Counted from the first letter of the stretch, positions 1-60,036 are shown. The stretch is 64,000 bases of DNA from an uncultured Bdellovibrionales bacterium (GCA_964420045.1 CAYQPQ010000002.1:2979-66978); one strand, 5' to 3'. Notes: generated from the sequence alone by a model not told the origin. Numbers and translations are program-made.

Positions 1-1297
1 AACGTTCTCCCTATAGTATAGATCGATTCGTTTCGAACGACAACAAAAAAATGAAAACGGGCACAAAAACGGGAAAATGCGGAACCCCCGAATCCATACG
101 GAAACACCCGAATCGAACATTTCGAATGGGTACGGGTACTCCTTTGAAGATGAAGATGGCAAGGATTGAGTGAAACAGCGAGTACCTTCTTCTGCAAGGA
201 GGCTCCGGCTTCCCGATACGAAGAAAACAGAAACGACGCGCAGTTGAACGCGCCCTCGAAGAACGACGCACTCGCTCCCGCTCCCAATGAATGAAAGTCC
301 CTCGAAAGTGAATCACAAAACTTCTCCCTCTGAGTTGTGGCGAGCGAACCCCGCCGAGAGGCGGGGGAGCGAGTAGAAAGAATGACTCGACAATCCTAAA
401 AGTGTCCCGAGTACTCTCGGGACTCCTTATTCGGAGAACGTCACCCCGCCCCGAGGGCGGGGATGGGGGTGGGAGCGTACCCGTATTGTCGGGCGAGAGA
501 GTGGAGCGTGAGACGTACTCGTCGAACTCCTCAATGAACCCGTGCCCCGTCGCGTCCCGTAGCATTTTTCGGTACTCCGAAAATGCGATTAGGGGGCAAA
601 AGGCGAGAGGTTGGGTGAATCGCCTTTTGAGCACCCCGATGGAGAGCCCTATCCCCCCTGCATAGCAATTAGGACTCCTATCATTATTGGGGTACGCCGG
701 GGTTGGGGGGTGCAGGGGGGAGGGTCGGCTCGGGGTGCGACCCCTACTGGATGGGTGGCTGTTCCCCGAGGACGGCGAGGGGGACAGGCACCCTAGCGAC
801 GACTCTCTACTGAGAGCTCCGAGTATGCTCTCGGGGCACCGCTTCCCCGTACCCGTGCCTGTATGACGCGCGAATCCGAAGAGGCTTTATCCATAATGAA
901 CCCGTACCCTTCGCCCGAGGAAAGTTGCGCCCCGAGTATGCTCTCGGGGCACCTTTTCCTCGTACCGGCATTAATGAGTGTTTTGGCTTGAAATGAGGAC
1001 AAATATCTGATAGAGTAAAAATGCACACAACTCAATTTCATCGAAGTGGAAGCGATGTATTTTTTTACATCGTTTCAGCGAAAGGGCGACCTTCGTTACG
1101 ACTTCGATGAGGAGTTGTGTGCAAACGAGTGGTCGTCCTTTTGTGTTTGCACTCATGTACTCCTCACGCCATTCTCGACATTCATTCTTGAGATACAAAG
1201 GCGGTCGGCCGTTTTGGGAATGGACTGTTGCTGACATTGTTCTCTACTTCGTTTTGCTTGGGATCATTCTATTGCTCACTCTTTTTGAGAATTGAGT

Positions 1298-23631: not shown

Positions 23632-23634
23632 ACC

Positions 23635-24555
23635 CTAAGCAGTTTCTGGCACCGAAGGTTGAGAAGCAGACTTCCCACTCGACCCTCCATACGAAAATAC
23701 CTCTGGTTCGGCATTCGGATCCTCTTCAAGACCGGCACCCTGTTGAATACTCACACCGCGTTTGTATTTCAATTCTTTCTCCAGATTCGCTTTTTCCTCA
23801 CCGCGATAAATACCAAGAAGATGCCCGTCTCGCATGGAAAGCGCTGTTTTTGCATACGCAAGATACTCAAGATCGTGCGTCACCATAATGAGCGTTTTCC
23901 CGTTCTCATTGAGTGACCGAAGAAGTTTTAAGAGCATCTCGCCGGCATCATAATCCAGGTTGCCGGTCGGTTCATCCGCAATGATAACTTCCGGATCGGT
24001 GATAAGCGCTCGAGCAACCGCGATACGCTGCTGCTGTCCGCTCGAGAGATCCATCGGGTGATAATCCGCCCAATCGACAAGCTCCACCGAGCGAAGCGCC
24101 TCGCGCGCGCGTTCAAACGCCGTCAGCCGATCCCAGCCAAGCAAGAACAATGGAAAGGCGATATTCTCCAGAACGCTCAGTGACTTCACCCAATTCGACT
24201 GCTGATACACCATACCGATATGCTTTTTGCGAAACTCCGATCGAACATCCTCTTCCACTCCCGGACCATACAGGTTTTCTCCGAGAAACGTCATACTTCC
24301 TTTTGATGGTCCCTCCAGCCCGAGAATAATATGGAGCAGCGTCGACTTCCCACATCCGGACGGCCCGAACACGATCAAGAAATCAGATCGCTCTACGGTA
24401 AAACTAATGCCTTTCAAGACATCGATAATCTGCGTTCCGACATGAAACGATTTATGTACGTCGGTCACCGCAATAACCGGTTCGCCCGCCTGAGGAGTCG
24501 ATTCGTACCCTCCGGCAAATGGCTGTTTTGAAATGGGAGTGATAGTTTCCGACAT
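23635..24555 (-). CDS. ABC transporter ATP-binding protein (MacB/LolD-like)
   Basis: Walker A is GPSGCGKST, the signature is LSGGQQQRIAVARAL and Walker B is IIADEPTGNLD. Confidence 0.88.
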   Translation of the reverse strand: MSETITPISKQPFAGGYESTPQAGEPVIAVTDVHKSFHVGTQIIDVLKGISFTVERSDFLIVFGPSGCGKSTLLHIILGLEGPSKGSMTFLGENLYGPGVEEDVRSEFRKKHIGMVYQQSNWVKSLSVLENIAFPLFLLGWDRLTAFERAREALRSVELVDWADYHPMDLSSGQQQRIAVARALITDPEVIIADEPTGNLDYDAGEMLLKLLRSLNENGKTLIMVTHDLEYLAYAKTALSMRDGHLLGIYRGEEKANLEKELKYKRGVSIQQGAGLEEDPNAEPEVFSYGGSSGKSASQPSVPETA

Positions 24556-24563
24556 ATCAGCGT

Positions 24564-27500
24564 TTACTGGCCAAAGATGGATTTAAGACTCGAAAACACA
24601 ATATCGAGCGCATTCTCGGTCGCTTTCGGCGCAATGGAGACAATATCAATCGATTCTCCGACATTCCCCGCCTTGTCTTTCGAAAGCACACGAAGATGAT
24701 ACACCTTCGACGGCGTTAATTTCGAGATCACCACCGTGTGATTCGATACCAACGAAGCGTCCTCTTGCGTCTTCTGCGGATAGACCGACCCCGTCCCCTC
24801 GCCATACTCCACCTGCGAAGTTGCCGACTCATCCGTTGTCCATGTAATCACCAATTGCGCCTCCGCCTCGCCCTGACTCCCGTCGGACGACTTCACGATA
24901 AGCCCCTCGACATTCGCATCAATGATTTGCGGAGCGCGCGTGTCGGTTGCCGTCGTGAACTGCAAGGCGTCGGATTTCGCTTCATTGCCAAAATTGTCTC
25001 TCCCTCGCACCACCAGCGAATAAGATGTTTGAGGCAGAAGATCCCGAAGCAATATGCGGTGTTCTCCCGCTACCATCTTCGCATCCACCTCATCCTTCGC
25101 ATCGCCCGCATTTCCCTCGGGGACATATGTGACAATGGAAGACGTTTCCGTATTGGTCTTCCATGAAATCAAAAGTACGGTCTGCGCCGTTCCCTTTACC
25201 TGCTGAATACGCACTTCTTCAATCTTTGGTCGCGGCAACGTTTCAAAGGAAAGCGTATTTCCTTCATATTCCTCTTCTTCACTATCAACGGTATTGATCT
25301 TGTAATAATATTTCGTGCCATCAAGCAGATCTTCGAGACTGGTCGTATAGGTTGTCTCGGACGTCGAGGTGGATATCTCCTTCACCAAACCAAACGCCTC
25401 CGTAAGTCCGTAGTATATTTTCACTTTGCTCGCCCCTCTTGCCGTAAATTCCAAAATAGCACTCGAAAGACCCGCGCTTTTCAAATTCGGATCGATAACC
25501 GTCGGAGCAGGATCAGTCTTAAACGACTTCTCACCCGAGAGTCCGGTATTACCGTCTTCGTCCGTCCAGCGCGCACGGTAGTGATAGGTTGTCCCCGGAG
25601 AAAGATTCGAGAGCTTGATCTCATGATCCGTCACCTGTTCGGAATTACTTGGTTCCTCGGAATAATAGTCTCCGGAACCCTTCCCATATTGCACCTTGCT
25701 GTCAGACGCCCGATCGGTCGACCACCCAATAGTCGCACTCTTGGTGGTAATGAGTGAAACCGACGGACCGGAAGCGAGCCCCGCCGCCTCGGTGTATTTC
25801 CCGGTCGGATACGCCGAAACAATTTCACTGAATGCGCCGCAGTTATTAACACTGTCACACGCGCGAATCTTATAGTAGTGCAGCGCCTGCGTCAGTCCCG
25901 TGTCCACAAAGGCGATACCGCTCGTCGAGGCAACTTTCGTATACGTCCCGCTCTCACTCAACGAGTGATAGATCTGATAGGAATCGACACCGGAACCGAT
26001 ATCCGCCGGCGCCTCCCATGACACCGCCAGCTTCCATGACTCGGTATTTTTCACTGACACATCCGCGATATCGGTATTCAGCGGAATGCCCGGCGCGCTT
26101 GTATCAGCGACAAACTCAACCGTTTCGTAGGCTCCATAATTTATAACGCCGCCCAAATCCTCCGGATTCTTCGCAACAACATAAAACGTGTTCGTGCCCT
26201 TTTGCGTCGCAAACGCCGATGCTGCAACCGACTCCACTCCGGAAGCGGTAAACGTGCAGGCATCTTCCGACGGCACAGCATTTACCGTATAGCAGTACGT
26301 GAGATCACTCGCATCTCCCGAAAAACTAAACGGCGGATCCCACGTGAACGCGAAAGAGTTCGCGGTGTTTGTTGCCGGTATCGCTTGGACATTTTGCGGC
26401 GCCGTCGGTCCGGCTCCTGCATAGTAAAACGAGGTACGCACATTGCTCGCGCTGACATTTCCCGCCACATCAATCGTACGCAAATAAAAGAAATTCTCTC
26501 CCGTCTGGTAGGCAGCGTCGGCGATATCAACTTGGAGAGCCGTCGTCGTTGACGACCAACCATCGCTCGCAACCGTCGCTGCAATTTGATACTGATATCC
26601 GGCAATCATCGAGTTCGTCGACGGATTGCCGTTTCCGTCCGTTCCCGCGCTCCACAAGAACGAAAAGTCATTGTCAGGAGAGTACACAGCTGGCGCTGCG
26701 GTTACACCAAGCGGATTCGTCGGAGCCGTCGAGTCGAGCCAATAGGAAAACGCCACAGGAAATGTCACACTTGTATTCTGTGCGACATCTTTCGCTTTCA
26801 CGATAAGATAGTATTTCTGTCCGCTTACCAAGGCATTCCCATCCGTATCGACAGTGGCTGTATAGCTGTTTCCTGCTTGGAAATCCCCCTGCGTTGTCGG
26901 CTCAGCACTCGCCGATGTGCCGAAATATACATAGTACCCCGCAACGCCCGACCCGCCGGTATCGGCTGCAGCGGACCACTCGAAATAGGGTGCTGAATAG
27001 GAATACCACGTACCCGTTGTCAAATCGGTTAATCCACCGCTTGCATTCTTGGCAGCGAGTGTCGGCGTACCGGACCATGTTGGCGCCGCAAGATCCGCTG
27101 TCGCTGTCAACGTAACCGAGTTGAGTCGAACTAACTCATTGCCATTCCCAAGAAGCACCGCTTGCCACAACAATCCGCCCGACCCTGCGGGAAATGTCGG
27201 GATATTCGTCGATATCGTCGAGGCGTCATTCGACTGCGCATATCCAGACGATGTTGCCCATGCGGAACCACTCCAATATTGCCATGTCGATCCGCCATCG
27301 CTCGAGAGGCGGTATGCGATATTTCCCGGCGCATCCTCATCCGCAACAAATGAGTCCCACTTCTTCACGCCGGAGGTGTGAACCGCCGAAGCGAGCGTCA
27401 CGGTTTCGTATCCGTTCGAATACGGAGTCGACTGAAACGACGTTCGCGCAACAGAACTGATTCGAAGCTCATCGAGAGAACCCTGAAAGAACCCTTCCGG

Positions 27501-30500
27501 TTTTCCGTATTCGCGACCGGCATATGTTGTCCCGATAAGAATATCGCTCGACGAATCCGCAATCGACATCGAAATAGAGCGCGAATTATTCAGCGTACCG
27601 TCAATATACACACTCATCGTGGAGCCATTATACGTTGCGGCGACATGGTGCCAATTTGTATTAAAAGAACTCGTTGAAGACTGCAAGAAAGCATTGTTGC
27701 CAAACGACCAAACAGCCGCATCGGCATTCGCTGTATTTCCGGTGCCAGCATAAAACTTTCCTTTGTAGGCACTGAACGCGCCGACTTCTTCAATCGTCGA
27801 CCCCCAACTTCCGTTCACGTTGTCACCACCGGCTTGCGCCCACAACGATCCAGCATATCGCCACACCTCTCCGTCTCCGGCTGTCGTGCCCAGTCCCGCA
27901 TAGAGCGCTCCGTTATAAACAGCGAGCGTTCGAACCCGCTCATAGGTTCCGCTTGACCAACTTCCACCAATATCGTCGCCTCCGATAAGCGTCCACGACG
28001 AGCCATCATATTTCCACACTTCCGCATCATCGGTCGATGTGCCAAGCCCCACATACAAAAACCCGGCGTACACAATCATACTGTCCACTTGTTCATAGGT
28101 ACTGTTCGCCCAGCTCGAATTGATACCGTCCCCACCGACACGACTCCACGATGGAGTACCGTCACAATTGGCACACTCCCACACCTCGGCGTCGCCGGCG
28201 CTCGACCCCAAGCCGGCATAGAGCTTCCCAGCATGCACCCCGAGCGTTGTCACTCGTTCAAAATTCGTCGTCCAGCCGGAATACAGACTGTCGCCGCCAA
28301 CCTTAGTCCACGTTGAACCATTCCATCGCCATACTTCCGCGTCATTCGCGCTATTGCCCAAACCGGCGTAGAGGAATCCGCCGTATGACGCCAAAGAATT
28401 TACCTCTTCAAAGCCCGTTGTCCAGCCGGAATTGAGACTGTCTCCGCCGATTTGTTCCCATGTCGAGCCGTTCCAATGCCACACTTCCGCATCATTCGAA
28501 CTCGACCCCAAGCCGGCATACAATTCTCCTCCGTGCCCGATAAGACTCGTCACCGTTTCATAGGTATTCGCATCCCAACTCCCATTTACACCCTGACCAC
28601 CGATAATGGTCCATGTCGTCCCATCAAACTGCCACACCATAGCATTGCCGATAGTGGCGACGCCCGTTCCCGCATACAAATAGTCACCCGTCACGTTTAA
28701 AACCTCAACACTTCGGAGCCCACGAAATCCCCAGCTGAAATTCACATAATCACCTCCGATAAGCGTCCATGACGATCCGTTCCACGCCCATTCCTGTGCC
28801 GAAACCGTCGAACTCGAAGTACTCACACCGGCATAGAGCGTCGATCCGGACACGGCAAGGGTACTTACAATAGTGTGTGTATTCGTAAAACTCCCATTCA
28901 CGCCGTCGCCGCCGATTTTAGTCCAGGTTGATCCGTCAAAACTCCATACCTCATTGTCTCCGGCCGTTGAGCCAAGACCGGCATAGAGTGTTGTCCCGTC
29001 ATTCACGATGGAGTACACCATTTCATAGCTCGAACTGTCCCAGCTTGAATTTACGGTGTCGCCGCCGATCTTGCTCCATGTCGAGCCGTTCCATTTCCAT
29101 ACTTCTGCGTCGCCTGCCGTCGAGCCGAGACCAACATAGAGATTCCCGCCAAAATAGGTCATCGAGTAGACATATTCGAACGTCGTATCCCAACTTGAGT
29201 TCAGACTGTCGCCGCCGATCTTGCTCCATGTCGAGCCGTTCCATTTCCAGACTTCGGAATCCCCGGCTGTCAAACCCAGCCCGGCATACACGTTCGTACC
29301 GTCATTCACCAAGCTATATACGCCTTCGTAATTTGTCGTCCAGCCGGAATTCAAACTATCACCGCCGATCTTGCTCCATGTCGAGCCGTTCCATTTCCAC
29401 ACTTCGGCATCATTCGCGCCCGTCCCGAGACCAGCGTAGAGCTCCCCGCCAACAAACGTCAGCGCATTCACCGCCTCAAACGTATTAATCTGCCAGCTTG
29501 AATTGAGCGCATCGCCGCCGATCTTGCTCCATGTCGAGCCGTTCCACTTCCACACCTCGGCATCGCCCGTTCCACTTCCCAGTCCGACATAGAGATTCGT
29601 GCCGTCATTCGCCATGACATACACCGCCTCAAACGTATTGATTGCCCAGCAATTGTTCAGTCCGTCTCCGCCGATCTGCGTCCATCTCGTTCCGTTCCAT
29701 TTCCACACTTCGGCGTCGCCCGTTCCGTTTCCCGTCCCGACATAGAGATTCCCATCGAGAACATTCGACGATTCGATAGTCGGATTTCCGTTCAAATCCC
29801 AACTTCCGTTAATATCGTTCCCCGCCTGCTGCGTCCATCCGGATGCCGAATCATTCGCCAGCTCATAGGTGAGCTTGCCCGTCTCATTGTCGTAGTACAA
29901 CTGATAGTCGCCCTTATCGACAATACCCTGCCGTTGAGAATGGCTTCCCGCCGAAAAAGCCGAGGAAAATTTCGTCCACGCTTCAATCGTATTCGCCTGG
30001 GACAAAGAATTTGCCGTCGAATCCGGAACCGACGCAAAAGCTGTCGTTCCGTTGAGCGAGAGCGCATTGTTTAGATTCCCCGAAACAAAGCTTCCTCCCG
30101 ATACCGTCGCGTGATTCGCATTCGACGAACTATCATTGGCCGTCGACCCGCTCGATTCGTCGAAATGATAGAGTGCTACCGTATCGCTATCGTCCGCATA
30201 GTTCTTCACCGAAAGCCGCGATTCCGTATTCGAACTATCGAGAGTCACTCCACTCGAAGCAACATAGTCACTCGGCGTTGCAAAATTCCATGCTTCACCA
30301 ATCTCCCCGTCAGCGAAAATACTGTGGATCCGACCCGAAAAGAACAGAAACGCGCCCGCCGCCACACAAGCGGACAAGACAGATAGACCGATGTATCTCG
30401 GCTTCAGACTCCAAAAAATTCGAGCTATCCGAAGCAGGAATCGCCCAAAGAAAACTCCGATCGATATGAGGAGTCGATAGAAATGGTTGTGTTTTTGCAT

Positions 30501-30509
30501 AATACCCAA
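24564..30509 (-). CDS. Giant surface protein of 1981 aa. It has an N-terminal membrane anchor, two LamG/ConA-like lectin domains, about 14 tandem beta-propeller-type repeats with the motif YAGLGS.AGDAEVWKWNGSTWSKIGGD, and C-terminal FN3/Ig-like domains
   Basis: The N-terminal transmembrane segment is LSACVAAGAFLFFSG. Repeats of about 50 aa are clear in the translation, and near-identical units of about 150 nt are visible at about 28900-29720, for example ccgccgatcttgctccatgtcgagccgttccatttcca four times. LamG-like segments are ...ALYHFDESSGSTANDSS... and ...NWHHVAATYNGSTMSVYIDGT...LDELRIS. Confidence 0.8.
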   Translation of the reverse strand: MGIMQKHNHFYRLLISIGVFFGRFLLRIARIFWSLKPRYIGLSVLSACVAAGAFLFFSGRIHSIFADGEIGEAWNFATPSDYVASSGVTLDSSNTESRLSVKNYADDSDTVALYHFDESSGSTANDSSSNANHATVSGGSFVSGNLNNALSLNGTTAFASVPDSTANSLSQANTIEAWTKFSSAFSAGSHSQRQGIVDKGDYQLYYDNETGKLTYELANDSASGWTQQAGNDINGSWDLNGNPTIESSNVLDGNLYVGTGNGTGDAEVWKWNGTRWTQIGGDGLNNCWAINTFEAVYVMANDGTNLYVGLGSGTGDAEVWKWNGSTWSKIGGDALNSSWQINTFEAVNALTFVGGELYAGLGTGANDAEVWKWNGSTWSKIGGDSLNSGWTTNYEGVYSLVNDGTNVYAGLGLTAGDSEVWKWNGSTWSKIGGDSLNSSWDTTFEYVYSMTYFGGNLYVGLGSTAGDAEVWKWNGSTWSKIGGDTVNSSWDSSSYEMVYSIVNDGTTLYAGLGSTAGDNEVWSFDGSTWTKIGGDGVNGSFTNTHTIVSTLAVSGSTLYAGVSTSSSTVSAQEWAWNGSSWTLIGGDYVNFSWGFRGLRSVEVLNVTGDYLYAGTGVATIGNAMVWQFDGTTWTIIGGQGVNGSWDANTYETVTSLIGHGGELYAGLGSSSNDAEVWHWNGSTWEQIGGDSLNSGWTTGFEEVNSLASYGGFLYAGLGNSANDAEVWRWNGSTWTKVGGDSLYSGWTTNFERVTTLGVHAGKLYAGLGSSAGDAEVWECANCDGTPSWSRVGGDGINSSWANSTYEQVDSMIVYAGFLYVGLGTSTDDAEVWKYDGSSWTLIGGDDIGGSWSSGTYERVRTLAVYNGALYAGLGTTAGDGEVWRYAGSLWAQAGGDNVNGSWGSTIEEVGAFSAYKGKFYAGTGNTANADAAVWSFGNNAFLQSSTSSFNTNWHHVAATYNGSTMSVYIDGTLNNSRSISMSIADSSSDILIGTTYAGREYGKPEGFFQGSLDELRISSVARTSFQSTPYSNGYETVTLASAVHTSGVKKWDSFVADEDAPGNIAYRLSSDGGSTWQYWSGSAWATSSGYAQSNDASTISTNIPTFPAGSGGLLWQAVLLGNGNELVRLNSVTLTATADLAAPTWSGTPTLAAKNASGGLTDLTTGTWYSYSAPYFEWSAAADTGGSGVAGYYVYFGTSASAEPTTQGDFQAGNSYTATVDTDGNALVSGQKYYLIVKAKDVAQNTSVTFPVAFSYWLDSTAPTNPLGVTAAPAVYSPDNDFSFLWSAGTDGNGNPSTNSMIAGYQYQIAATVASDGWSSTTTALQVDIADAAYQTGENFFYLRTIDVAGNVSASNVRTSFYYAGAGPTAPQNVQAIPATNTANSFAFTWDPPFSFSGDASDLTYCYTVNAVPSEDACTFTASGVESVAASAFATQKGTNTFYVVAKNPEDLGGVINYGAYETVEFVADTSAPGIPLNTDIADVSVKNTESWKLAVSWEAPADIGSGVDSYQIYHSLSESGTYTKVASTSGIAFVDTGLTQALHYYKIRACDSVNNCGAFSEIVSAYPTGKYTEAAGLASGPSVSLITTKSATIGWSTDRASDSKVQYGKGSGDYYSEEPSNSEQVTDHEIKLSNLSPGTTYHYRARWTDEDGNTGLSGEKSFKTDPAPTVIDPNLKSAGLSSAILEFTARGASKVKIYYGLTEAFGLVKEISTSTSETTYTTSLEDLLDGTKYYYKINTVDSEEEEYEGNTLSFETLPRPKIEEVRIQQVKGTAQTVLLISWKTNTETSSIVTYVPEGNAGDAKDEVDAKMVAGEHRILLRDLLPQTSYSLVVRGRDNFGNEAKSDALQFTTATDTRAPQIIDANVEGLIVKSSDGSQGEAEAQLVITWTTDESATSQVEYGEGTGSVYPQKTQEDASLVSNHTVVISKLTPSKVYHLRVLSKDKAGNVGESIDIVSIAPKATENALDIVFSSLKSIFGQ

Positions 30510-47139: not shown

Positions 47140-48408
47140 TCAGTGAACCCTCCGCCGAAACAAATCTCGAAACACCGGATAAATATCCGCCGGACCATCA
47201 ATCTGCCGCATCGCGAAATGCGGACACCGTTCTTTCACTTCCTCATACGACTCCCATAAACTCTGATGCCGATCCGGCGTAATTTCAATATACGCATAAT
47301 AGCGAACGAATGGCACGATTTCCTTGAGAAGAATATCTTTGCAACGAGGCGAGTCATGCGCCCAATTGTCGCCGTCCGAAGCCTGAGCCACATAGATATT
47401 ACAACTACTCGTCGGATAGCGATTCCTCATGATTTCACGCATCAACTCGAGCGCACTTGATACGACCGTACCTCCCGTTTCCTTTTTGCAGAAGAACTCG
47501 TGTTCAGTAGCTTCCTCCGCAACGGTATGATGTCGAATAAACACTATGTCTATCTTCTCATAGTTGCGCTTCAGAAAGAGGTGAAGCAACATAAAAAATC
47601 GCTTTGCCAAATCCTTTCGCGCTCGATCCATCGACCCCGACACATCCATAATACAAAACATCACCGCCTGTGTCGTCGGCTGGGGTTGCTGAGTCCTGTT
47701 TGTATAGCGCAAATCGAATGTATCGATGAACGGTACTGATCGAAGACAGGCACGTTCCCGAGAAAGCTCCTCAAGAAGAGCGCGCACAACAGGCGACTCT
47801 GATACGCCACTTTCACGGAAACATTCCAAAACTTCCTCGATTTCCGCAATACGGCGCTTATGCTGGCTCCCAAATGCTATGCGTCGCGCCATCGCGCCCC
47901 GGAGAGACCGGACAATATCAATGTTCGACGGATTTCCCGCACTGCTAAACCCGGCACGAACAGACTTGAATTCGGTCAACGTGGCAAGTTGTGTCCGGAC
48001 CAGGTTGGGTAATTCCAAATCCTCAAAGAACAATTCCAAAAATTCCGCGCGCGACAATTCGAAGACAAAGTCATCTGTGCCCTCTCCGCCATTGCCTGCC
48101 TGCCCACTGCCGGAACCACTCCCATTTCCGCCCTTCGGACGTGAAACTTTGTCTCCCGGAACAAACTCTTGGTTGCCCGGATGAATCACTTCGCGTTTTC
48201 CACCATCGCCGTGCCTGAATTGCGGTTCGGACAAATCGCGGTTCGGAATATTCACCTGCTCGCCATTGTCGATATCAGTAATACTCCGACCATTCATAGC
48301 CTCGGTCACCGCCTTCTTGATCTGAACCTTGAACCGCCGAATGAATCGCTGCCGATTCACTGTGCTCTTGTGCTTCCCATCCAACCGCCGATCAATAAGC
48401 TGCGCCAT
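47140..48408 (-). CDS. yeaH: YeaH/YhbH family protein (DUF444; a vWA-like stress-response protein usually partnered with PrkA/YeaG kinase)
   Basis: MAQLIDRRLDGKHKSTVNRQRF...HPGNQEF...GSGSGSGQAG...VPFIDTFDLRY...MFCIMDVSGSMD...YVAQASDGDNW...VVRYYAYIEI aligns along its full length with E. coli YeaH. Confidence 0.85.
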   Translation of the reverse strand: MAQLIDRRLDGKHKSTVNRQRFIRRFKVQIKKAVTEAMNGRSITDIDNGEQVNIPNRDLSEPQFRHGDGGKREVIHPGNQEFVPGDKVSRPKGGNGSGSGSGQAGNGGEGTDDFVFELSRAEFLELFFEDLELPNLVRTQLATLTEFKSVRAGFSSAGNPSNIDIVRSLRGAMARRIAFGSQHKRRIAEIEEVLECFRESGVSESPVVRALLEELSRERACLRSVPFIDTFDLRYTNRTQQPQPTTQAVMFCIMDVSGSMDRARKDLAKRFFMLLHLFLKRNYEKIDIVFIRHHTVAEEATEHEFFCKKETGGTVVSSALELMREIMRNRYPTSSCNIYVAQASDGDNWAHDSPRCKDILLKEIVPFVRYYAYIEITPDRHQSLWESYEEVKERCPHFAMRQIDGPADIYPVFRDLFRRRVH

Positions 48409-48719
48409 CACGCACCTCCGCACCTCAACAAATTGTTAAAAAACACCCCGCCGCCTTTTGTGCGACCGGGTTCTCTTTTTCATTCCCTTCTTTCGTGCTC
48501 ACATTCCTTTTTCTGCAAAGAGAGATCACCCGGTCACACCAAACGGTCACGCTTCGGAAGAAGCGCCCCAACAAAACACGCCGGAATCATACATCTCTCG
48601 GATTGCATATTTCCCTTATACCACGCCCCTCAAGGAAACGCAAGGGTTGCCGCACTCGCCCGCGGCAACCCGGAACCACACGAGAGATCATCTCAAAGGT
48701 CACGTCCGCAAAAACGCTT

Positions 48720-53579: not shown

Positions 53580-54671
53580 TCACCTCCACCCCTGCCCGAC
53601 AATGCGCCAGACAATTTGCTCTTGTTGGACATTCACGACGCCGCCGGGGGTTTGTTGGGGGACGAGCTGTTGAAGTTTTTTGAATTCCATCGAGAGACCG
53701 AATGCGGCGCTCTTTTCGGTCGACTCAACGAATGCTATTTTGTAGTCTTTGCGATTCTCGCTCCGCCCGTCTATTTCCGTTTCCGGATTCCACGAATCCG
53801 TAAGATGCATATCGGCAGTATAGGATTCATAGAGCTGGGACAATATGTCGGCAAGCTTCGGATCGGCATCGACGATCGTCGAAACACCGAGCTCCTCGCG
53901 CGCTTCCTTTCTCCCGATATAGTACTGGTGCGAATAGAGTTTCTCGGTAAAGTGCTCGATGATATTCGCAACACCCTCTTTGGTCATCGGATGCGTATGA
54001 CTCTTTAGCAGCCGCCCCGCCAAAACCTTAATGAGATTGTGCGTCCGGTTCACATTGCCCAAAGCCAAGGGATGAATGGAGGGCGTTGCCTCCATGAATT
54101 TCATAAAAATATCGGCGAGCTTCTCGTCACTCTTCACGCCGAATTTGTTCTTCGCAAGATCGAAGTAACTCATCACCTCCTCGACCGAAATCTGAATGCG
54201 TCCGTCCGGATTCTTGGGATCGGCGGGATTGAAAAAGTTCGACGTCGACGGATCAATCGGCGAGAGCTCGCTCATGTCGCTCATCACGATTTCGTCGGCG
54301 CCGAGCGCGATCATCGTCGCCGCAGAGTGCGCCTTATACGGCACCAAAACGGAGAACTTTTCACAATACTCGCGTATCATCGAGACCAGTCGCCACGGCA
54401 CCATCGTGTCGCCGCCTGCACTGTAGAGGACGAGATCAATATGCTTCACCTTCCCTATCGCCCGCAATTGCCGGCTTATGATCGGGATGATATCCATCGC
54501 CACCCGCGCATTGACCGGCCCCTGCCGATCACTCGTCACATACGCCACCACCCGCGACCCGCGCGCGGACTCTATCGCCTCAAAAAGCTTTGAACGTTCC
54601 ATAAGAAGAAATTTACAACAGAAAACTGTCCCGGAAGTATATCGCGAGAACATCGCCAAGACAAGACTCAA
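53580..54671 (-). CDS. SDH-family (S49/ClpP-fold) serine protease
   Basis: IDLVLYSAGGDTMVPWRLVSMIREYCEKFSVLVPYKAHSAATMIALGADEIVMSDMSELSPIDP matches the SDH/SppA Clp-fold pattern, with a GG oxyanion region and a catalytic Ser within HSAAT. Confidence 0.65.
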   Translation of the reverse strand: MSLVLAMFSRYTSGTVFCCKFLLMERSKLFEAIESARGSRVVAYVTSDRQGPVNARVAMDIIPIISRQLRAIGKVKHIDLVLYSAGGDTMVPWRLVSMIREYCEKFSVLVPYKAHSAATMIALGADEIVMSDMSELSPIDPSTSNFFNPADPKNPDGRIQISVEEVMSYFDLAKNKFGVKSDEKLADIFMKFMEATPSIHPLALGNVNRTHNLIKVLAGRLLKSHTHPMTKEGVANIIEHFTEKLYSHQYYIGRKEAREELGVSTIVDADPKLADILSQLYESYTADMHLTDSWNPETEIDGRSENRKDYKIAFVESTEKSAAFGLSMEFKKLQQLVPQQTPGGVVNVQQEQIVWRIVGQGWR

Positions 54672-54731
54672 AAAGCAGGGGCGTCACACACTGTGACACC
54701 CCTGCAGTGGCAGTATATCTCAAGCGAGACC

Positions 54732-55196
54732 CTACCGGCTGGTCATCACGGTCACGCCGCCTTCGGCATTGCAGGCGCGAACGGTCACCATGTTGTTGGT
54801 ATCCTTGACAATGGAATACCCGGTAAGCGCCGCCGTTCCATTTGGATCAACCGGAATGCTCTTCAAGTAGCTGCCGAGCGCTGTCGAGAGATCAATGCAA
54901 TCTGTTGCGCCGGTAACATTGCACCCTCCAGCCCCAGAAATAGCGCATCCGGTTGTTGCCGTGCCGATCTGCTTCTCTGTCGAAGTAATCGCTGCCGGGA
55001 AGGTTCCCTTGGAATCATTCACATACGTATGCACCGCCGAAAGAATATTCTGGATATCCGTCGTCCGACGCGCGTTCCGCGTATCCTGGAAGCGCTTCGC
55101 TGGATCGAGCGCTACAAACACTACCACCGCCAACACCGCGAGAAGTCCGATAACCAAGAGAATTTCCATGAGCGTAAAACCTTTCTGCTGCCTCAT
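54732..55196 (-). CDS. Type IV pilin-like protein (prepilin N-terminal cleavage/methylation domain)
   Basis: KGFTLMEILLVIGLLAVLAVVVFVAL is a class III signal with G|FTLxE, and a C-terminal Cys pair is present. Confidence 0.85.
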   Translation of the reverse strand: MRQQKGFTLMEILLVIGLLAVLAVVVFVALDPAKRFQDTRNARRTTDIQNILSAVHTYVNDSKGTFPAAITSTEKQIGTATTGCAISGAGGCNVTGATDCIDLSTALGSYLKSIPVDPNGTAALTGYSIVKDTNNMVTVRACNAEGGVTVMTSR

Positions 55197-55372
55197 ATGT
55201 TTTTCTTTTATAAATTAGTTATGCAATGCTCCACAATACGAAACAATCCACTGCCTATAGTATACGAGAGAGACGTATCAAAAAATCACTTTATCTCGCC
55301 ATATCGTTTTTGTTTTTAACGGATAGAAATACGAGAAACTTTTCTTCAGTATACCATATCTTCAAAAAATCG

Positions 55373-55858
55373 TCAGCGGGACACAGAAATATTCGTCCCA
55401 CCCTCCGTGCCGCAGGCTTTGACCGTCACAATCCCATTGACATCAATCACTGCGGAATATTTCGTAAGCGTTGTCGTGCCGCCATTCGGATCCTTCGGAA
55501 CGGTTTTGAGATATTTGGCAAGCGTCGATGAGAAGTCAACGCAGTCGGTATTGCCCGTAACCGCACAGCCTCCGGTCGCAAGAGCGCACCCCGGTCCCGT
55601 GCCGAGTTGTTTCTCCGTCGTCGAAAGACCCGTCGGCATCGTCCCCTGATTGTCCACTATATACGTTTGAATCGCCGAGAGAATCGACTGCACATCGGTC
55701 GCACGTTTTGCGTCGCGCACATCGCGGAAGCGCTTCGCTGGATCGAGCGCTACCAAAACGACCGTCGCCAAAACGGCAATCATTCCGATTACGAGAAGGA
55801 TTTCGAGCAACGTAAATCCGCGAATGCGCCCTGCTCGTCGGGCAAGAATACTGTTCAT
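55373..55858 (-). CDS. Type IV pilin-like protein, paralog of the 54732-55196 product
   Basis: RGFTLLEILLVIGMIAVLATVVLVALDPAKRF is nearly identical in architecture to the neighbouring pilin. Confidence 0.85.
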   Translation of the reverse strand: MNSILARRAGRIRGFTLLEILLVIGMIAVLATVVLVALDPAKRFRDVRDAKRATDVQSILSAIQTYIVDNQGTMPTGLSTTEKQLGTGPGCALATGGCAVTGNTDCVDFSSTLAKYLKTVPKDPNGGTTTLTKYSAVIDVNGIVTVKACGTEGGTNISVSR

Positions 55859-55877
55859 ATTTCCATACTATTTAAGT

Positions 55878-57368
55878 TCACAGCGAACGAGCAATGTCTT
55901 TCCCAAGTACCAGAATCACATCGTCATCAGCATCTTCCGGTATGTCTCGACGGCGTTCGAGAGAAAATTCCAGTCCGGCATTCGCCAAGAGCTCGTCAAG
56001 AAACTCGTCCGGAACCGTTTCTTTCGCACGAACAAATGAGACGACAGACGCCGACGCCGCCGTGCGAACTCCGGAGATAGCGAATTTTTCCTCCGCAAGA
56101 TCATCCCCGAGGCGCGATGCTGCCCCGGTGATACCGCTTCCGTTTTCAAGTGCCACTCGAAAACTCTTATGGGTGATTTCTTCCGCATCTTCCGCCGGAA
56201 TACCTGCAGTGGTCGCAGAAGAGTTCTCCTGATCCTCCACACCGGGCAGTGAAACATCTTCAATCAAGGGAGCTGTTGCTTGCGGAACCGGAGCGATATC
56301 GCGCGCATTTGATGAGATCTCCCGTCGACTCCGAAGCAATGCGACAATAGAAACACCTCCCACAAGCAGCAGGGTGACAAAAAGCACCGCCAAAACTTTC
56401 GTACGGTTGGGAATCCCCGGACGGGCACGACTCGCATCGGTCATTCGCTCGGAAGACGTTCGTTCATCGAGCGCATGCGGACGAAAACGCTCGGATGTCT
56501 TCATCTCGGAGTCAGCCGCTTCTTCCGAATCGTTGTGAGTCTTCTTTTCCGCAATACTCAATTCAATAGAGAGAATATCCGAATCATTCCCGGACACGTC
56601 TTTCTTCAGGGCGAGACCGAGAATTGCATTCTTGTCGGAGAATTCCATCGAGAATCCGGCACGCTCTGCCCTTGATATCTCGAAATCTCCCAAGTCGCCT
56701 TCCGTACAGGCACCGACAAAAAGAATGCGCAAAGGTGAAAACCCGAATCGTTCCTTCATAAAATGCCCGACCGTTTCAACCGTTTCAAAGGTCAATTCCC
56801 GAAGCGACGTCGCGCTCGAAAGCACCATGCCATTCATCACTCCCGCTACAAAGAAAAATCCACTCTTATAGACAAGCAGCAGCGGCTCTTCCCGATCCGC
56901 AAACAGTCTCGCAACCGCACATGATTCCGGCAGGGTCACCGAGATACGAAACCCCGCCTCTCGAAGCGCCGGCACCACCACCCGCGCAAACGACGCCACG
57001 AGCGCCACCACCTGTACCGGACGTCCAAGAGACGCTTCCGGCAGAGAAATATCTTGGTAATCCCAGGCGCTCTCGGCAAGATCTTCCGGAATAAACTTTC
57101 CGGCAAGGTCGCGCACCGCAAGACGCTCCTCTTCCGGCGAAGCGTAGGACGCGTCTTTCGGTAGGAAAAAAGTGGCGACATATGAGAATTGTTCACCGAC
57201 AAGAAGCCGCGCCGTGCGACCAACCGCTGCGCGCGCTGTCCCCAGAACAGACCCAATATTCTCGGTTGTCCACGGAAGATTCACCACCTCCGTCACCTTC
57301 TCTCCCCGAACAGAGAAGCCCTGCACGGCACTCGGTGTGATAAAAAGAATTGATTTCGTATCAAACAT
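55878..57368 (-). CDS. Pilus assembly protein, a PilM-like N-domain fused to a PilN-like transmembrane segment and a C-terminal LytR_C-like domain
   Basis: The N-terminal roughly 250 aa have an actin-like, PilM-type layout. The transmembrane helix is VLAVLFVTLLLVGGVSIVALL. The C-terminus FRVALENGSGITGAASRLGDDLAEEKFAISGV resembles LytR_C. The fusion interpretation is tentative. Confidence 0.5.
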   Translation of the reverse strand: MFDTKSILFITPSAVQGFSVRGEKVTEVVNLPWTTENIGSVLGTARAAVGRTARLLVGEQFSYVATFFLPKDASYASPEEERLAVRDLAGKFIPEDLAESAWDYQDISLPEASLGRPVQVVALVASFARVVVPALREAGFRISVTLPESCAVARLFADREEPLLLVYKSGFFFVAGVMNGMVLSSATSLRELTFETVETVGHFMKERFGFSPLRILFVGACTEGDLGDFEISRAERAGFSMEFSDKNAILGLALKKDVSGNDSDILSIELSIAEKKTHNDSEEAADSEMKTSERFRPHALDERTSSERMTDASRARPGIPNRTKVLAVLFVTLLLVGGVSIVALLRSRREISSNARDIAPVPQATAPLIEDVSLPGVEDQENSSATTAGIPAEDAEEITHKSFRVALENGSGITGAASRLGDDLAEEKFAISGVRTAASASVVSFVRAKETVPDEFLDELLANAGLEFSLERRRDIPEDADDDVILVLGKDIARSL

Positions 57369-57415
57369 AGGCTACTTGCAAGTATACACCCTTCGCCGCA
57401 ATCTCCGCGAGACAC

Positions 57416-57793
57416 TCATGGAAGAGCGTGCCAACTCACAAGCGTGACGCCGGAACCAGTTCTGTTGAAAACAATTGTCGCCGCATGATCGTAGGCGCCA
57501 TTCGTTCGTACCGTTGCTGTCCATTCGTTTCCCACCTTCGAAAGAGATACGGAGCAAGACCCGTCCGGATGTGTTATTGTTCCGCCGGAATAGGAAGCGC
57601 TCGCGCGCGAGAAAAGCAGCACATCCTCAACACACCCATCAAGCAATCCGCGAGCACTCGCTCCTTCGGAAAGTGCAAACGACGTTTGCGCATTGCCAAT
57701 CGAGAGAATCGTCACCGTCACCCCGAGCGCAAGCGCAACCGCGAGAAGGATAAACACTGTCGAAAGGATAATGAAACCGCGAGACCGTCGCAT
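57416..57793 (-). CDS. Minor pilin / pseudopilin-like protein
   Basis: RGFIILSTVFILLAVALAL is an N-terminal hydrophobic prepilin-like segment, though the canonical Glu at +5 is absent. The protein is small. Confidence 0.5.
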   Translation of the reverse strand: MRRSRGFIILSTVFILLAVALALGVTVTILSIGNAQTSFALSEGASARGLLDGCVEDVLLFSRASASYSGGTITHPDGSCSVSLSKVGNEWTATVRTNGAYDHAATIVFNRTGSGVTLVSWHALP

Positions 57794-57807
57794 ACTGTAT
57801 AGGAAAA

Positions 57808-58368
57808 TTATAGTGAGTGAGACCGAAGTTCGGCGGAAGATCGAAGCGCTGTAGAACTCGAGTATTCAAAGCGATTGCCCGCAATAACCGTTCCAAGTTT
57901 GATTTCAAAACCGACATTTTTCGTGCTTCCATCGGCAGAAGACGCATTGGCAAACACCAGAGAACTCACCGCGACATTGGTTGATGTCAGAGCAACGGGT
58001 GCCGACGCGCCGAGCGCAACCCGAAGCGTCCCGCCGGAAACATCAATCACGATCGGATCATTTGGCGCAACGCCGCGAAGCGTCAACTTCGATCCGGAAA
58101 CAGTTGCCAGATTGACATTAAAATTGGAGTTCGTTGTATCAATATCCGTCGCCTCGCGAATAAAAAACGTGAGCTTCTCGGAAGCAAGCCTCGCATTCGA
58201 AACAACGTCATGATGCGTCCCATTCTTCGCACCAATGCCGATCATGTTCCACTCAAACAAAACAAGCACCGTCAAAACGATGCCGGATATACCCACATAC
58301 AACAGCATCTCAATAAGAGTAAATCCTTGCTGTTTTTGATTTTTTTTCAACATTCTTTTCATATCCAA
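57808..58368 (-). CDS. Minor pilin / pseudopilin with a prepilin-type N-terminal methylation domain
   Basis: QGFTLIEMLLYVGISGIVLTVLVL is a class III signal. Confidence 0.8.
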   Translation of the reverse strand: MDMKRMLKKNQKQQGFTLIEMLLYVGISGIVLTVLVLFEWNMIGIGAKNGTHHDVVSNARLASEKLTFFIREATDIDTTNSNFNVNLATVSGSKLTLRGVAPNDPIVIDVSGGTLRVALGASAPVALTSTNVAVSSLVFANASSADGSTKNVGFEIKLGTVIAGNRFEYSSSTALRSSAELRSHSL

Positions 58369-58389
58369 AATAGTTCCATTCCGGACATA

Positions 58390-59886
58390 CTATTGCGGAG
58401 CAAACACGACAAATTCCTCCGTATTGGAAGCGCCAACACCAAATGCCCGATCGAGCACCTCACTATACGCGATACCAAGAAGATTGGTATTGCCCGAAAC
58501 ATTCACAGAACCGACTACGGAGGGAGATGCTGGCGAAGCAATATCCACCACCTGAAACTCAGATGAATTACTACTCGTTGCCAAAAAAGCAAGCGTGTTG
58601 GAATTTCCAAAGGTGAGAGCGATATCATTCACAGTATCCGACACATTGACAGAACCAAGAAGTGATGGACTTCCCGGCGTCGAAACATTCACCGTATAGA
58701 CATCGCTCCCTCGTCCTACCAAGAGCGTTGTTCCGACAATCGCCACCGTCGTCGCATCGGTCGTCCCGAAAAGATCGAGCGACCCAGCAAGCGATGGTGA
58801 CGACGGAACGGAAACATTGATCACCTGCACCTCCCGTGAATCGTGCGCCGACGCCGCATAAGCGAAGTTCCCCGAAACAACCACTTCATTTCCACTGGCG
58901 CCAAGATCCATCGAGCCGACGAGTGTTGGCGAACTTGGCGTCGAAACATTTACAACCACGAACTCATTGTCCGAACCGCTCGCTCGAACCATATATGCTG
59001 TTGTGCCAACCAAGAAAACACCGAGAGCATCTTCCGTGCCGGGAGCATTCAGCGTACCAACCACGCTCGGTGACGATGGAGTCGCGATATCCACCACCTG
59101 CAACTCCTGATTATTATTCTTATTCGAAATCACCACAATTCCGCCAGAAACAGCGATATTGGTCGGCGTACCAGTAACAGTCAAAGACCCGACAATGCTC
59201 GGATTCAACGAGTCACTCACATCAATAATCAGGAAATTTGGACTTCCGCTCGGACGAATCATGTAAACAAAATTTCCTTGCAGTCGAATCTTGATGCCGT
59301 TATTCGTTCCGGACGTATTCAGACTCGCAATCTGTGTCGGATTCGTCCAGTCACCGCCACTGCTTATCGGCAGATTCCAATCGGTCACAAAGGAAACGAG
59401 TGAAATCGTATTCGTACGCGACACCGAAACCGGCCATGTCACCGTCGACGTTACTTTTCGACTCAATGGATCATCCGTACCACCGCTCGCCACGATATTT
59501 CCATTTCCATCGCGAGCAACTGGTGCAACCGATACCGTACGCACATACTTCCCATAGGACGTTGACGCACCGGAAAATGCCCACACACCTCCAACTCCAA
59601 CACGATCAATGCCGGAAGAAGCCACTGTCCCAAGCGATGCGAATGATTGATTCTTTATCGAGCGAAGCGCTTCGATACCCTCGCTTGCGTAATTCGACGC
59701 GATGCTTTCCTCTTCTGCAAGTCGATCCGCATCGAGCCCTTGCAAAAGAAGCGCGAGCGCCCCCGACGCGAACACTGCAAAAAGTGCCGCCCCAAGAAGC
59801 ACCTCAACCACTGAAAACCCGCGGCGTTTTTGAAAAAAAATATTTTGTTTTTGACCTTTCTTTTTCACGTTTCTATTGTAACACAA
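58390..59886 (-). CDS. Pilin-like protein fused to a large LVIVD-repeat beta-propeller domain (putative pilus tip adhesin)
   Basis: The N-terminal RGFSVVEVLLGAALFAVF prepilin signal is followed by at least seven repeats of the form ...S.P..VGS...G....V.V.G..AY.A....EVQV.DVS... (LVIVD-type). Confidence 0.7.
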   Translation of the reverse strand: MCYNRNVKKKGQKQNIFFQKRRGFSVVEVLLGAALFAVFASGALALLLQGLDADRLAEEESIASNYASEGIEALRSIKNQSFASLGTVASSGIDRVGVGGVWAFSGASTSYGKYVRTVSVAPVARDGNGNIVASGGTDDPLSRKVTSTVTWPVSVSRTNTISLVSFVTDWNLPISSGGDWTNPTQIASLNTSGTNNGIKIRLQGNFVYMIRPSGSPNFLIIDVSDSLNPSIVGSLTVTGTPTNIAVSGGIVVISNKNNNQELQVVDIATPSSPSVVGTLNAPGTEDALGVFLVGTTAYMVRASGSDNEFVVVNVSTPSSPTLVGSMDLGASGNEVVVSGNFAYAASAHDSREVQVINVSVPSSPSLAGSLDLFGTTDATTVAIVGTTLLVGRGSDVYTVNVSTPGSPSLLGSVNVSDTVNDIALTFGNSNTLAFLATSSNSSEFQVVDIASPASPSVVGSVNVSGNTNLLGIAYSEVLDRAFGVGASNTEEFVVFAPQ

Positions 59887-60036
59887 GGAAAAATGTCTTT
59901 TCTTCAGATACGCCTATCAAGATAGTAAAAGAAATCTTTCAAAAGTTTATTCAAACATTCGCCGAACATTTAGGAGAAGTTCTTCTTTTTGCTATCGAGA
60001 CAATTTTCAAAACAAATGAAATTTTTTAACACAACA

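Follow-up and report, generated by a model that had tools for sequence, protein, structure and literature searches.

The window analysed here is a stretch of DNA of 64 kb, and its minus strand carries between positions 54732 and 59886 six consecutive open reading frames, all of them real genes. With a probability of roughly 0.7 we read them as the pilin and alignment-protein half of a type IV pilus (T4P) cluster typical of the ultrasmall Patescibacteria (CPR), nearly all of which have such a cluster, in a genome resembling Candidatus Moraniibacteriota; the genes would then encode three of four conserved minor pilins, with the propeller on the one in the PilV position, one bitopic scaffold protein and two GspG-like major pilin paralogues. 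This reading is built on the genes present, on their domains and predicted folds, and on how far sequence and gene order are conserved. The pilus locus itself is real, and its components are ordinary for the Patescibacteria lineage. A preliminary description had proposed a six-gene type IV pilus-like locus, and the six minus-strand reading frames were indeed found at the coordinates it gave and their prepilin motifs confirmed:

54675-54705, minus strand: intrinsic terminator-like hairpin closing the cluster, with a 14-bp stem, 9 G-C pairs and a T-run
54732-55196, minus strand: major pilin-like paralogue A, 154 aa, G|FTLME signal, four conserved Cys
55373-55858, minus strand: major pilin-like paralogue B, 161 aa, G|FTLLE signal, four conserved Cys
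55878-57368, minus strand: GspL-like PilM/PilN-LytR_C protein, 496 aa
57416-57793, minus strand: small minor pilin-like protein, 125 aa, signal-like G|FIILS
57808-58368, minus strand: minor pilin, 186 aa, G|FTLIE signal
58390-59886, minus strand: modular minor pilin with LVIVD propeller, 498 aa, G|FSVVE signal

Upstream of the gene of paralogue A lies a spacer of 176 nt with a promoter-like site (55376-55348). In clostridia pilins are controlled by c-di-GMP, and this analogy prompted a search for a riboswitch or other RNA element, in which an Rfam scan of the intergenic regions returned nothing credible. The DNA repeats of the locus are those of the propeller blades and of the pilin paralogues only, and nothing points to a variation system.

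How common is such an arrangement? A search with a 9-sequence alignment of the LVIVD pilin as query found relatives in no fewer than 387 reference species, of which 80 loci were listed, and the propeller pilin has more than 337 homologues. The titles of the listed loci name many Patescibacteria lineages, including Staskawicz-, Colwell-, Woese-, Falkow-, Gracili-, Peri- and Berkelbacteria as well as Dojka-, Uhr-, Doudna-, Jackson-, Kaiser- and Terrybacteria and WWE3. In most of them the order is PilB, PilC, a pilin of ~150 aa, the LVIVD pilin, a pilin of ~175 aa, a small E5-less pilin, in some cases a PilM-like gene, and one or more major pilins. In the literature, CPR have been described as enriched in T4P whose genes lie together, among them a 'GspL domain PilM' (PMC6744442). 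In the window, Pfam searches of 36 ORFs and six-frame motif scans revealed no gene for PilB, PilC, PilD, PilT or the first minor pilin, in line with the absence of PilB, PilC, PilT and PilD noted at the outset, and a peptidase A24 gene was likewise not found there. RecO lies directly upstream of the six genes, and the same six-gene block follows RecO in the complete 1.11-Mb Moraniibacteriota genome CP064974.1.

The class III signal (a basic leader with Gly-1 at its end, a hydrophobic residue at +1, Glu+5 and a hydrophobic helix of ~20 residues) is present in the 154-, 161-, 186- and 498-aa proteins. Against a gathering score of 21.2, the Pfam N_methyl family (PF07963) matches the 154-aa and 186-aa pilins with 28.6 and 30.4 bits, and the 161-aa and 498-aa proteins fall just under it with 19.2 and 19.3 bits; among homologues of the 498-aa protein, several have a precomputed PF07963 match. 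The two major pilin-like genes are paralogous, as had been proposed, since their products are 60% identical. Of the three minor pilins that had been counted, those of 498 and 186 aa are borne out by their signals, and the 125-aa protein comes with a caveat, having Ser at +5 instead of Glu, although all other features of the class III signal are present, and no Pfam family match. The N-termini of its family are hydrophobic and mostly read G-[YF]-[IV]-[TA]-L-[IL]-S. Of the 85 loci with a match to this family, 83 have it ~520 nt behind the LVIVD gene. The 186-aa pilin follows the LVIVD pilin directly, as do its homologues in other Patescibacteria clusters, where the distance between the two genes has a median of 2 nt (86 loci). 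Presumably the 125-aa protein is an E5-less tip subunit of the GspK/PilX type.

The largest of the minor pilins is composed of the following parts:

Residues 1-28, about 59803-59886, minus strand: leader and G|FSVVE class III signal
Residues 26-168, minus strand: alpha1 helix and pilin sheet
Residues 181-498, 58393-59346, minus strand: seven-bladed LVIVD beta-propeller

Seven repeats of ~45 aa are evident in the sequence of this protein, and Pfam assigns to it LVIVD (PF08309; E=4e-20, 71.3 bits, cut-off 20.2) and Beta_propel (23.2 bits, cut-off 22.4). The AlphaFold2 (AF2) model, with a pLDDT of 90, has 28 strands in seven blades and a long alpha1 helix at residues 26-85. The class III signal is conserved in the family, with G-1 in 56, F+1 in 47 and E+5 in all 60 of 60 homologues. 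Thus a prepilin signal is fused to an LVIVD propeller and the at least seven repeats that had been noticed are propeller blades. The gene may start at GTG 59868 (492 aa) and not at TTG 59886; a 100%-identical database copy (P0001) has 492 aa. With a class III signal, then a pilin module and finally the seven LVIVD blades, the protein is a modular minor pilin, in which the N-terminal pilin motif (IPR012902) is joined to an additional domain with no specific tie to T4P biology. IPR013211, which we take to be the LVIVD repeat, already occurs in such proteins. Modular pilins have been described as tip-exposed adhesins, and IPR012902-IPR013211 architectures are listed among them (Raynaud 2021, PMC8179133); Dataset S1 of that study holds IPR012902-IPR013211(xN) proteins, one of them an 860-aa protein from Falkowbacteria in which IPR013211 occurs 12 times. 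As in PilB and PilC of Streptococcus sanguinis (Raynaud 2021, PMC8179133), a class III signal and a pilin module are followed by a bulky C-terminal module predicted to be tip-exposed. However, that module is a vWA or lectin domain in S. sanguinis and a seven-bladed LVIVD propeller here, and the 498-aa family, which is known from sequence and prediction, sits at one and the same conserved place in the cluster of the Patescibacteria. The fusion had been called unusual, which does not hold: the pilin-LVIVD architecture is already known among modular pilins and is a conserved, syntenic component of Patescibacteria T4P, not a one-off oddity. Literature searches for LVIVD with Patescibacteria gave no paper, and for LVIVD with pilin nothing relevant.

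A comparison with PilY1/PilC of diderm T4aP suggests itself, as there, and presumably here, a propeller adhesin is presented at the tip by core minor pilins and the gene order follows a similar logic of minor pilins plus adhesin. This is an analogy only, since PilY1 is not a pilin and no specific similarity to the 498-aa protein was found. Homology to PilY1 was rejected, given that Pfam has no PilY1 match in the protein and PilY1 is absent from its best 50-60 structural matches; nor is it an IPR008707/Neisseria_PilC propeller in a non-pilin, as the PilY1/PilC adhesins are.

What does the propeller pilin bind? It could be imagined that DNA uptake is the main task of the filament, as a competence (Com/T2SS-like) pseudopilus, and that the propeller pilin captures DNA or another substrate and not host cells. 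In favor of this, the best, albeit weak, NCBIfam matches of the major pilins and of several minor pilins are to GspG/H and ComG pilins (GspG for paralogue B); a link between CPR T4P and competence has been drawn (PMC6744442), and RecO is the upstream neighbor. But the vicinity of RecO is lineage-specific, with PilB-PilC upstream in other genomes, and neither ComEA nor ComEC adjoins the locus. Moreover, experiments on a propeller pilin of this phylum serve as precedent in a single case, PilX2 of Nanosynbacter lyticus TM7x, which is needed for efficient host binding (Grossman 2024, PMC11623550). By its description PilX2 differs from the 498-aa protein, as it is reported to have RCC1-type repeats and no predicted PilD signal peptide, whereas the latter has LVIVD repeats and the conserved G, F and E5. 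As DNA uptake and host binding can also coexist, we consider a role mainly in competence unlikely. Still less probable is that the propeller is not a passive adhesin but an enzyme displayed on the pilus, a hydrolase or lyase with substrates from the host or the environment. The top Foldseek match of the propeller is an enzyme, the phosphotriesterase 5hrm, but the propeller fold is generic, identity to the structurally matching enzymes is only 11-15%, and equal or better matches are non-enzymatic WD40 scaffolds. In addition, the conserved Glu occurs once per blade within the repeat signature, suggesting a structural role.

The second multidomain protein of the locus, of 496 aa, had been described as a PilM-PilN-LytR_C protein. 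Its parts are:

Residues 1-258, 56595-57368, minus strand: actin-like PilM-fold domain (AF2 and Foldseek)
About residues 252-272, minus strand: motif 'GLALKKDVSGNDSDILSIELS', aligning with the PilM C-terminus and the PilN 'INLLP' motif
About residues 322-346, 56331-56405, minus strand: predicted transmembrane (TM) helix
Residues 403-491, 55896-56162, minus strand: LytR_C domain (Pfam)

LytR_C (PF13399) is matched with 32.2 bits against a cut-off of 22.2, scores above gathering also in homologues, and is separated from the TM helix by a low-complexity linker. For the N-terminal domain Foldseek with the AF2 model found as best matches PilM (5eox/5eou, E ~2e-12), 3jc8_Ma and 2ych, followed by the cytoplasmic domains of EpsL/GspL (E=3e-9, TM-score 0.62 normalised to the target); the top 9 matches are all PilM (E 2e-12 to 3e-10), and 2ych ranks 11. 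Sequence profiles did not lead to the same result. Pfam and NCBIfam at E<=1 contain no PilM or PilN match and Pfam no T2SSL match, a profile search of the PDB reached 2YCH at E=1.6 only, and hhalign of the family alignment against Terrybacteria PilM_2 gave a probability of 0.7%; one family member (P0149) has a weak PilM_2 match (E=6e-4). The assignment to PilM therefore rests on fold, synteny and one alignment. In this MAFFT alignment the protein is colinear with PilM_2 proteins, including the PilM C-terminus and the PilN 'G(I/M)NLLP' motif, its 'ILSIELS' being aligned with 'GINLLY/GMNLLP' of PilM_2-PilN-motif fusions, so that the equivalence of the PilN motif derives from a single alignment. 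The same holds for the phosphate-1 and phosphate-2 motifs of the actin/FtsA superfamily, of which the Asp residues seem to be lost ('GLDIxD' is replaced by 'LFITPS' and 'DIG' by 'KSG'); judged from sequence, the ATP motifs of the domain have apparently disappeared. Of the description as PilM-PilN-LytR_C, the PilM fold, one TM segment and LytR_C thus stood, LytR_C being the one domain of the three to be recovered in domain searches; a PilN domain proper was not detected, there being only the short INLLP-like motif before the TM helix. No gene for a PilO/GspM partner was seen in the locus.

We regard the protein as a GspL-like fusion of a PilM fold, a putative PilN-motif remnant, one TM helix and an outward LytR_C domain. 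Similar to GspL of the T2SS and PilM-PilN of T4aP, it has a cytoplasmic actin-like domain of ~250 aa, a single TM helix and an extracytoplasmic alpha/beta domain; unlike in these, the ectodomain is by Pfam LytR_C and not the periplasmic ferredoxin-like domain of PilN/GspL, and the PilM_2, PilN and T2SSL families do not match. A membrane-anchored extracytoplasmic LytR_C domain is also found in M. tuberculosis, where LytR_C mediates self- and hetero-interaction of VirR (PMC11832169), and there is a weak profile match to the Rv0431 structure 2m5y; the protein described here differs by its large cytoplasmic PilM-like domain and its place in a pilus cluster. The architecture is not unusual, as had been thought, since it is found in 125 of the top 158 cluster representatives of the family and in hundreds of 50%-identity clusters. 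No description of it was found in the literature, and a search for LytR_C together with PilM gave nothing.

Could the protein be a cell-envelope (LCP-associated) protein unrelated to pilus assembly? LytR_C is its sole significant sequence-family match, NCBI names its relatives 'LytR C-terminal domain-containing protein', and its ATP-binding motifs seem to be lost. Such a role is nevertheless very improbable, as the best structural matches are PilM and GspL, and in other clusters Pfam-positive PilM_2 genes occupy the same position (L004, L055, L063, L066 and L075), and in some of these a TM helix links the PilM_2 part to a different ectodomain, for example SH3_3. It counts against the main reading that a PilM-like gene is missing from this slot in the majority of syntenic loci. 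The 496-aa family itself recurs in T4P clusters of distant lineages (L014, L032, L039, L070 and L071). The LCP catalytic domain (LytR_cpsA_psr) has no Pfam match in the protein. Least credible of all is a decaying, non-functional T4P remnant, for which the absence here of the genes normally preceding the LVIVD pilin (PilB, PilC and the first minor pilin) and the abutting RecO could be cited, because all six reading frames are intact, the split arrangement is kept in several related genomes and samples at 65-79% protein identity, which indicates purifying selection, and in T4P systems, TM7x being an example (PMC11623550), the genes often lie at several separate places.

How could the products of the locus act together in a pilus of the Patescibacteria type? 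The location at the tip, the adhesin function, the contacts between partners and the role of LytR_C are what we infer here. Briefly, a prepilin peptidase encoded elsewhere would cleave the pilins after the conserved Gly. The minor pilins may assemble first on the PilC platform and prime PilB-driven polymerisation, and would therefore end up at the filament tip. The 35-kDa propeller, probably too bulky for the filament body, would be displayed there as a ligand-binding module for adhesion to host cells, doing the job of PilY1 in diderm T4aP while being covalently grafted onto a pilin. The 496-aa protein might play the role of PilM-PilN or GspL, with the actin-like domain contacting the ATPase or the platform and having apparently lost its nucleotide-binding Asp residues as in GspL. 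TM helix and flexible linker would place LytR_C outside the membrane, where it could oligomerise, tie the machine to the cell envelope, or both.

Patescibacteria are obligate episymbionts. A wider and tentative proposal, which we hold to be somewhat less probable than its negation, is that both proteins represent solutions spread through the phylum. On the one hand, a GspL-like protein would replace PilM-PilN-PilO in much of the Patescibacteria; its actin-like domain would no longer bind nucleotide, and an outward envelope module, LytR_C here and SH3_3 or others elsewhere, would physically couple the pilus motor to the wall of cells that have no outer membrane. On the other hand, the LVIVD pilin would be the phylum-wide pilin-fused counterpart of PilY1 and, from its fixed second minor-pilin position, determine which host cell the episymbiont recognises.

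Since modular pilins and CPR pili are already established, the value of these observations lies in annotation and in the generation of hypotheses and not in a new principle. Among the candidate means by which Patescibacteria locate a host and stay attached to it, type IV pili have the best support. A pilin with a propeller at its tip, whose position and sequence are conserved across the phylum, is an obvious candidate determinant of host recognition and offers a handle for predicting host range from sequence. Furthermore, the PilM-TM-LytR_C protein suggests how a pilus machine may be braced in an envelope that has neither outer membrane nor secretin, and for LytR_C, a domain that is poorly understood, it adds a second functional context independent of the first.

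Six consecutive ORFs lie on the minus strand at 54732-59886, separated by spacers of 21, 14, 47 and 19 nt and then by 176 nt ahead of the last gene, and this longest spacer, which precedes the last pilin gene, contains a promoter-like site. A strong terminator-like hairpin (54705-54675) stands at the cluster end. GC skew is negative across the whole window, the minus strand carries nearly all long ORFs, and plus-strand ORFs overlapping the locus are by-products. Pfam and NCBIfam detect N_methyl/prepilin motifs in the 154-, 161-, 186- and 498-aa proteins. ORF, Pfam, NCBIfam, paralogue and hairpin data confirm the preliminary description of a real six-gene type IV pilus (T4P)-like locus with pilins and a PilM/N-like protein, the domains of which had been read correctly. 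Downstream, an SDH-type ClpP-like serine protease gene (53580-54671, minus strand) directly follows the pilin genes, as it does in the related locus L003; in two other related loci (L001, L002) an unannotated 373-aa gene stands between them.

The 498-aa protein matches LVIVD with E=4e-20 and also Beta_propel (Pfam). Its N-terminus is, as proposed, a prepilin signal, of class III and not Sec: across 60 homologues Glu+5 is invariant, Gly-1 occurs in 56 and Phe+1 in 47. The AlphaFold2 model (pLDDT 90.3) has three parts.

Parts of the 498-aa protein (AlphaFold2)
residues 26-85, long alpha1 helix
residues 88-168, small pilin beta-sheet
residues 184-496, propeller of 28 strands in seven four-stranded blades

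The seven modelled blades agree with seven sequence repeats of ~45 aa, so that the claim of at least seven LVIVD repeats acting as propeller blades is borne out by Pfam, model and repeats alike. Translation may start at TTG 59886 or at GTG 59868; the TTG overlaps a TGnTACAAT extended -10-like sequence (59860-59890, minus strand), and the GTG six codons downstream yields a 492-aa product, as in the database copy.

How widespread is this pilin? In a word-indexed search, over 337 homologues shared this architecture at lengths of 440-500 aa; their names, where present, include Moraniibacteriota, Terrybacteria, Falkowbacteria and 'Tfp pilus assembly protein PilV'. When each species was represented by a single genome, relatives turned up in at least 387 species, and the best 80 come from many Patescibacteria lineages. 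ORFs were called in the related loci and searched with profiles built from sequences of this analysis, and most loci show the order PilB, PilC, pilin (~150 aa), LVIVD pilin, pilin (~175 aa), small protein (~135 aa) and major pilin(s). In the window and in CP064974.1, a complete 1.11-Mb Moraniibacteriota genome with a 78% identical protein, the block begins directly after RecO, and this site lacks PilB, PilC and the first minor pilin. The 125-aa gene belongs to the family of the small protein, which was matched in that slot in 83 of 85 loci. The N-termini of this family mostly read G-[YF]-[IV]-[TA]-L-[IL]-S; the helix is like that of a pilin but has Ser where Glu5 would stand, and the family presumably resembles GspK, the E5-less tip subunit. 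Gene order suggests that the four minor pilins parallel GspH-I-J-K and FimU-PilV-PilW-PilX and that the propeller pilin occupies the PilV/GspI slot; its match to TIGR02523 PilV is weak (NCBIfam, E=6.5e-4). Much longer ORFs at the LVIVD-pilin slot of L033 (7727-10975, 1082 aa), L048 (9977-12388, 803 aa) and L052 (8399-10948, 849 aa) probably include additional propellers or modules of another kind.

The 154- and 161-aa pilins are 60% identical, and their top NCBIfam match is the major pseudopilin GspG, below threshold. Both paralogues (54732-55858, minus strand) keep four Cys at aligned positions, a pattern that fits the disulfide-forming MdbA/VKOR families reported to be enriched in CPR (PMC6744442).

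In the 496-aa protein LytR_C is matched at residues 403-491 (32.2 bits, cut-off 22.2; Pfam), and sequence profiles recognise no other family.

Parts of the 496-aa protein (AF2), N- to C-terminus
residues 1-255, confident N-terminal domain (pLDDT ~90)
residues 321-357, long helix holding the TM segment
disordered Pro/Ser/Glu-rich linker
confident LytR_C domain, beta-alpha-beta-beta-alpha-beta

The closest structural matches are PilM of P. aeruginosa, Myxococcus and Thermus (E 2e-12 to 1e-9), followed by EpsL/GspL cytoplasmic domains (E=3e-9, TM-score 0.62 on target) and then FtsA. Synteny agrees, since PilM_2 genes fill the same slot elsewhere: in Terrybacteria a Pfam PilM_2 protein follows the small minor pilin, and other loci have PilM_2 proteins there, some of them Pfam-positive and joined via a TM helix to SH3_3 (L055, 10269-11903) or to an unassigned ectodomain of ~300 aa (L063, 12770-14887; L066, 12997-14610), and L039, L070 and L071 have LytR_C-bearing relatives. 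This looks like a general PilM-TM-ectodomain design with interchangeable outer modules. In a single MAFFT alignment the 496-aa protein is colinear with these PilM_2 proteins, its conserved GLALKKDVSGNDSDILSIELS is aligned with their GLALRGIEKNPKTAGINLLY, and they have the PilN-type motif 'G(I/M)NLLP/Y' at their C-termini. Of the proposed PilM-PilN-LytR_C composition, LytR_C (Pfam), TM segment and PilM fold (model) stand, and the PilN part comes down to this motif alignment, with no profile match. Because the Asp of both phosphate-binding motifs is replaced ('LFITPS', 'KSG'; same alignment), nucleotide binding has probably been lost, as in GspL. With one TM helix and no signal peptide, the LytR_C domain must face outward. 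By exhaustive profile search, representatives of 1251 clusters were matched, 301 of them with E<=1e-10; among the top 158, 125 combine PilM-like domain, TM and LytR_C and 24 have domain and TM only, and three close relatives end immediately past the TM helix. The PilM-like/LytR_C fusion thus represents a modular arrangement of wide distribution. These counts and those of the pilin homologues contradict the preliminary label 'unusual fusions'; both are instead the norm in the phylum.

Where is the remaining machinery? Neither Pfam searches of 36 ORFs nor six-frame scans for PilB/PilT Walker A and prepilin motifs revealed an ATPase, platform, peptidase or additional pilin in the 64 kb, in line with the reported absence of PilB, PilC, PilT and PilD from the window. 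On our reading the T4P system is split, and the locus supplies its pilin/alignment half. Judged from homology, fold and synteny, the minor pilins would prime assembly and cap the filament, and the propeller, because it would be too bulky for the filament body, would be displayed at the tip as a binding module. The GspL-like 496-aa protein could join ATPase and platform to the envelope, its LytR_C probably oligomerising or binding wall components; in M. tuberculosis VirR associates with itself and with Lcp proteins through LytR_C (PMC11832169).

Elsewhere in the window, a CHASE4-HAMP-PAS gene adjoins a PAS-HisKA-HATPase gene (17954-21212, minus strand), a split or paired sensor kinase. In L005 (12317-16679) and on the JGI contig of P0080, a database protein, the T4P cluster has as its immediate neighbour a pair of genes for a response regulator and a PAS kinase; such genes near T4P in other Patescibacteria hint that a regulatory connection may be conserved. 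At 24564-30509 (minus strand) a 1981-aa protein carries fibronectin-III, Laminin_G_3 and purple-acid-phosphatase-N repeats. It adjoins a MacB-like permease and ABC ATPase (21325-24555, minus strand), and is probably a giant surface protein that this neighbouring pair exports. An ORF for a large serine recombinase (Resolvase, Recombinase, Zn ribbon) at 1292-3073 (plus strand) overlaps a tRNA-Ser gene that runs the other way (2818-2905, minus strand); the overlap may point to the border of an integrated element or to an over-extended ORF. Minus-strand genes also encode a cohesin/Big_13-domain protein of 623 aa (8017-9888) and a full-length DUF444 protein (47140-48423, E=1e-174).

We take IPR013211 to be LVIVD. 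T4P clusters of CPR, with a 'GspL domain PilM', have been described (Meheust et al., 2019; PMC6744442), and Raynaud et al. (2021; PMC8179133) gave the definition of modular pilins. Their Dataset S1 lists IPR012902-IPR013211 architectures, among them a Falkowbacteria protein of 860 aa in which IPR013211 occurs 12 times, comparable to the longer ORFs of L033, L048 and L052. The LVIVD pilin adds a new member to a kind already catalogued. No paper was found in the literature that joins LytR_C with PilM or LVIVD with Patescibacteria, and the PilM-PilN-motif-TM-LytR_C protein is apparently an undescribed variant of the GspL/PilMN scaffold. Host binding by Nanosynbacter TM7x needs PilX2, a propeller-bearing minor pilin that is reported to have RCC1 repeats and to lack a PilD signal (PMC11623550), whereas the window's pilin combines LVIVD repeats with a prepilin signal. 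The locus would gain importance if the LVIVD pilin were shown to determine host specificity, or LytR_C to replace PilN/PilO.
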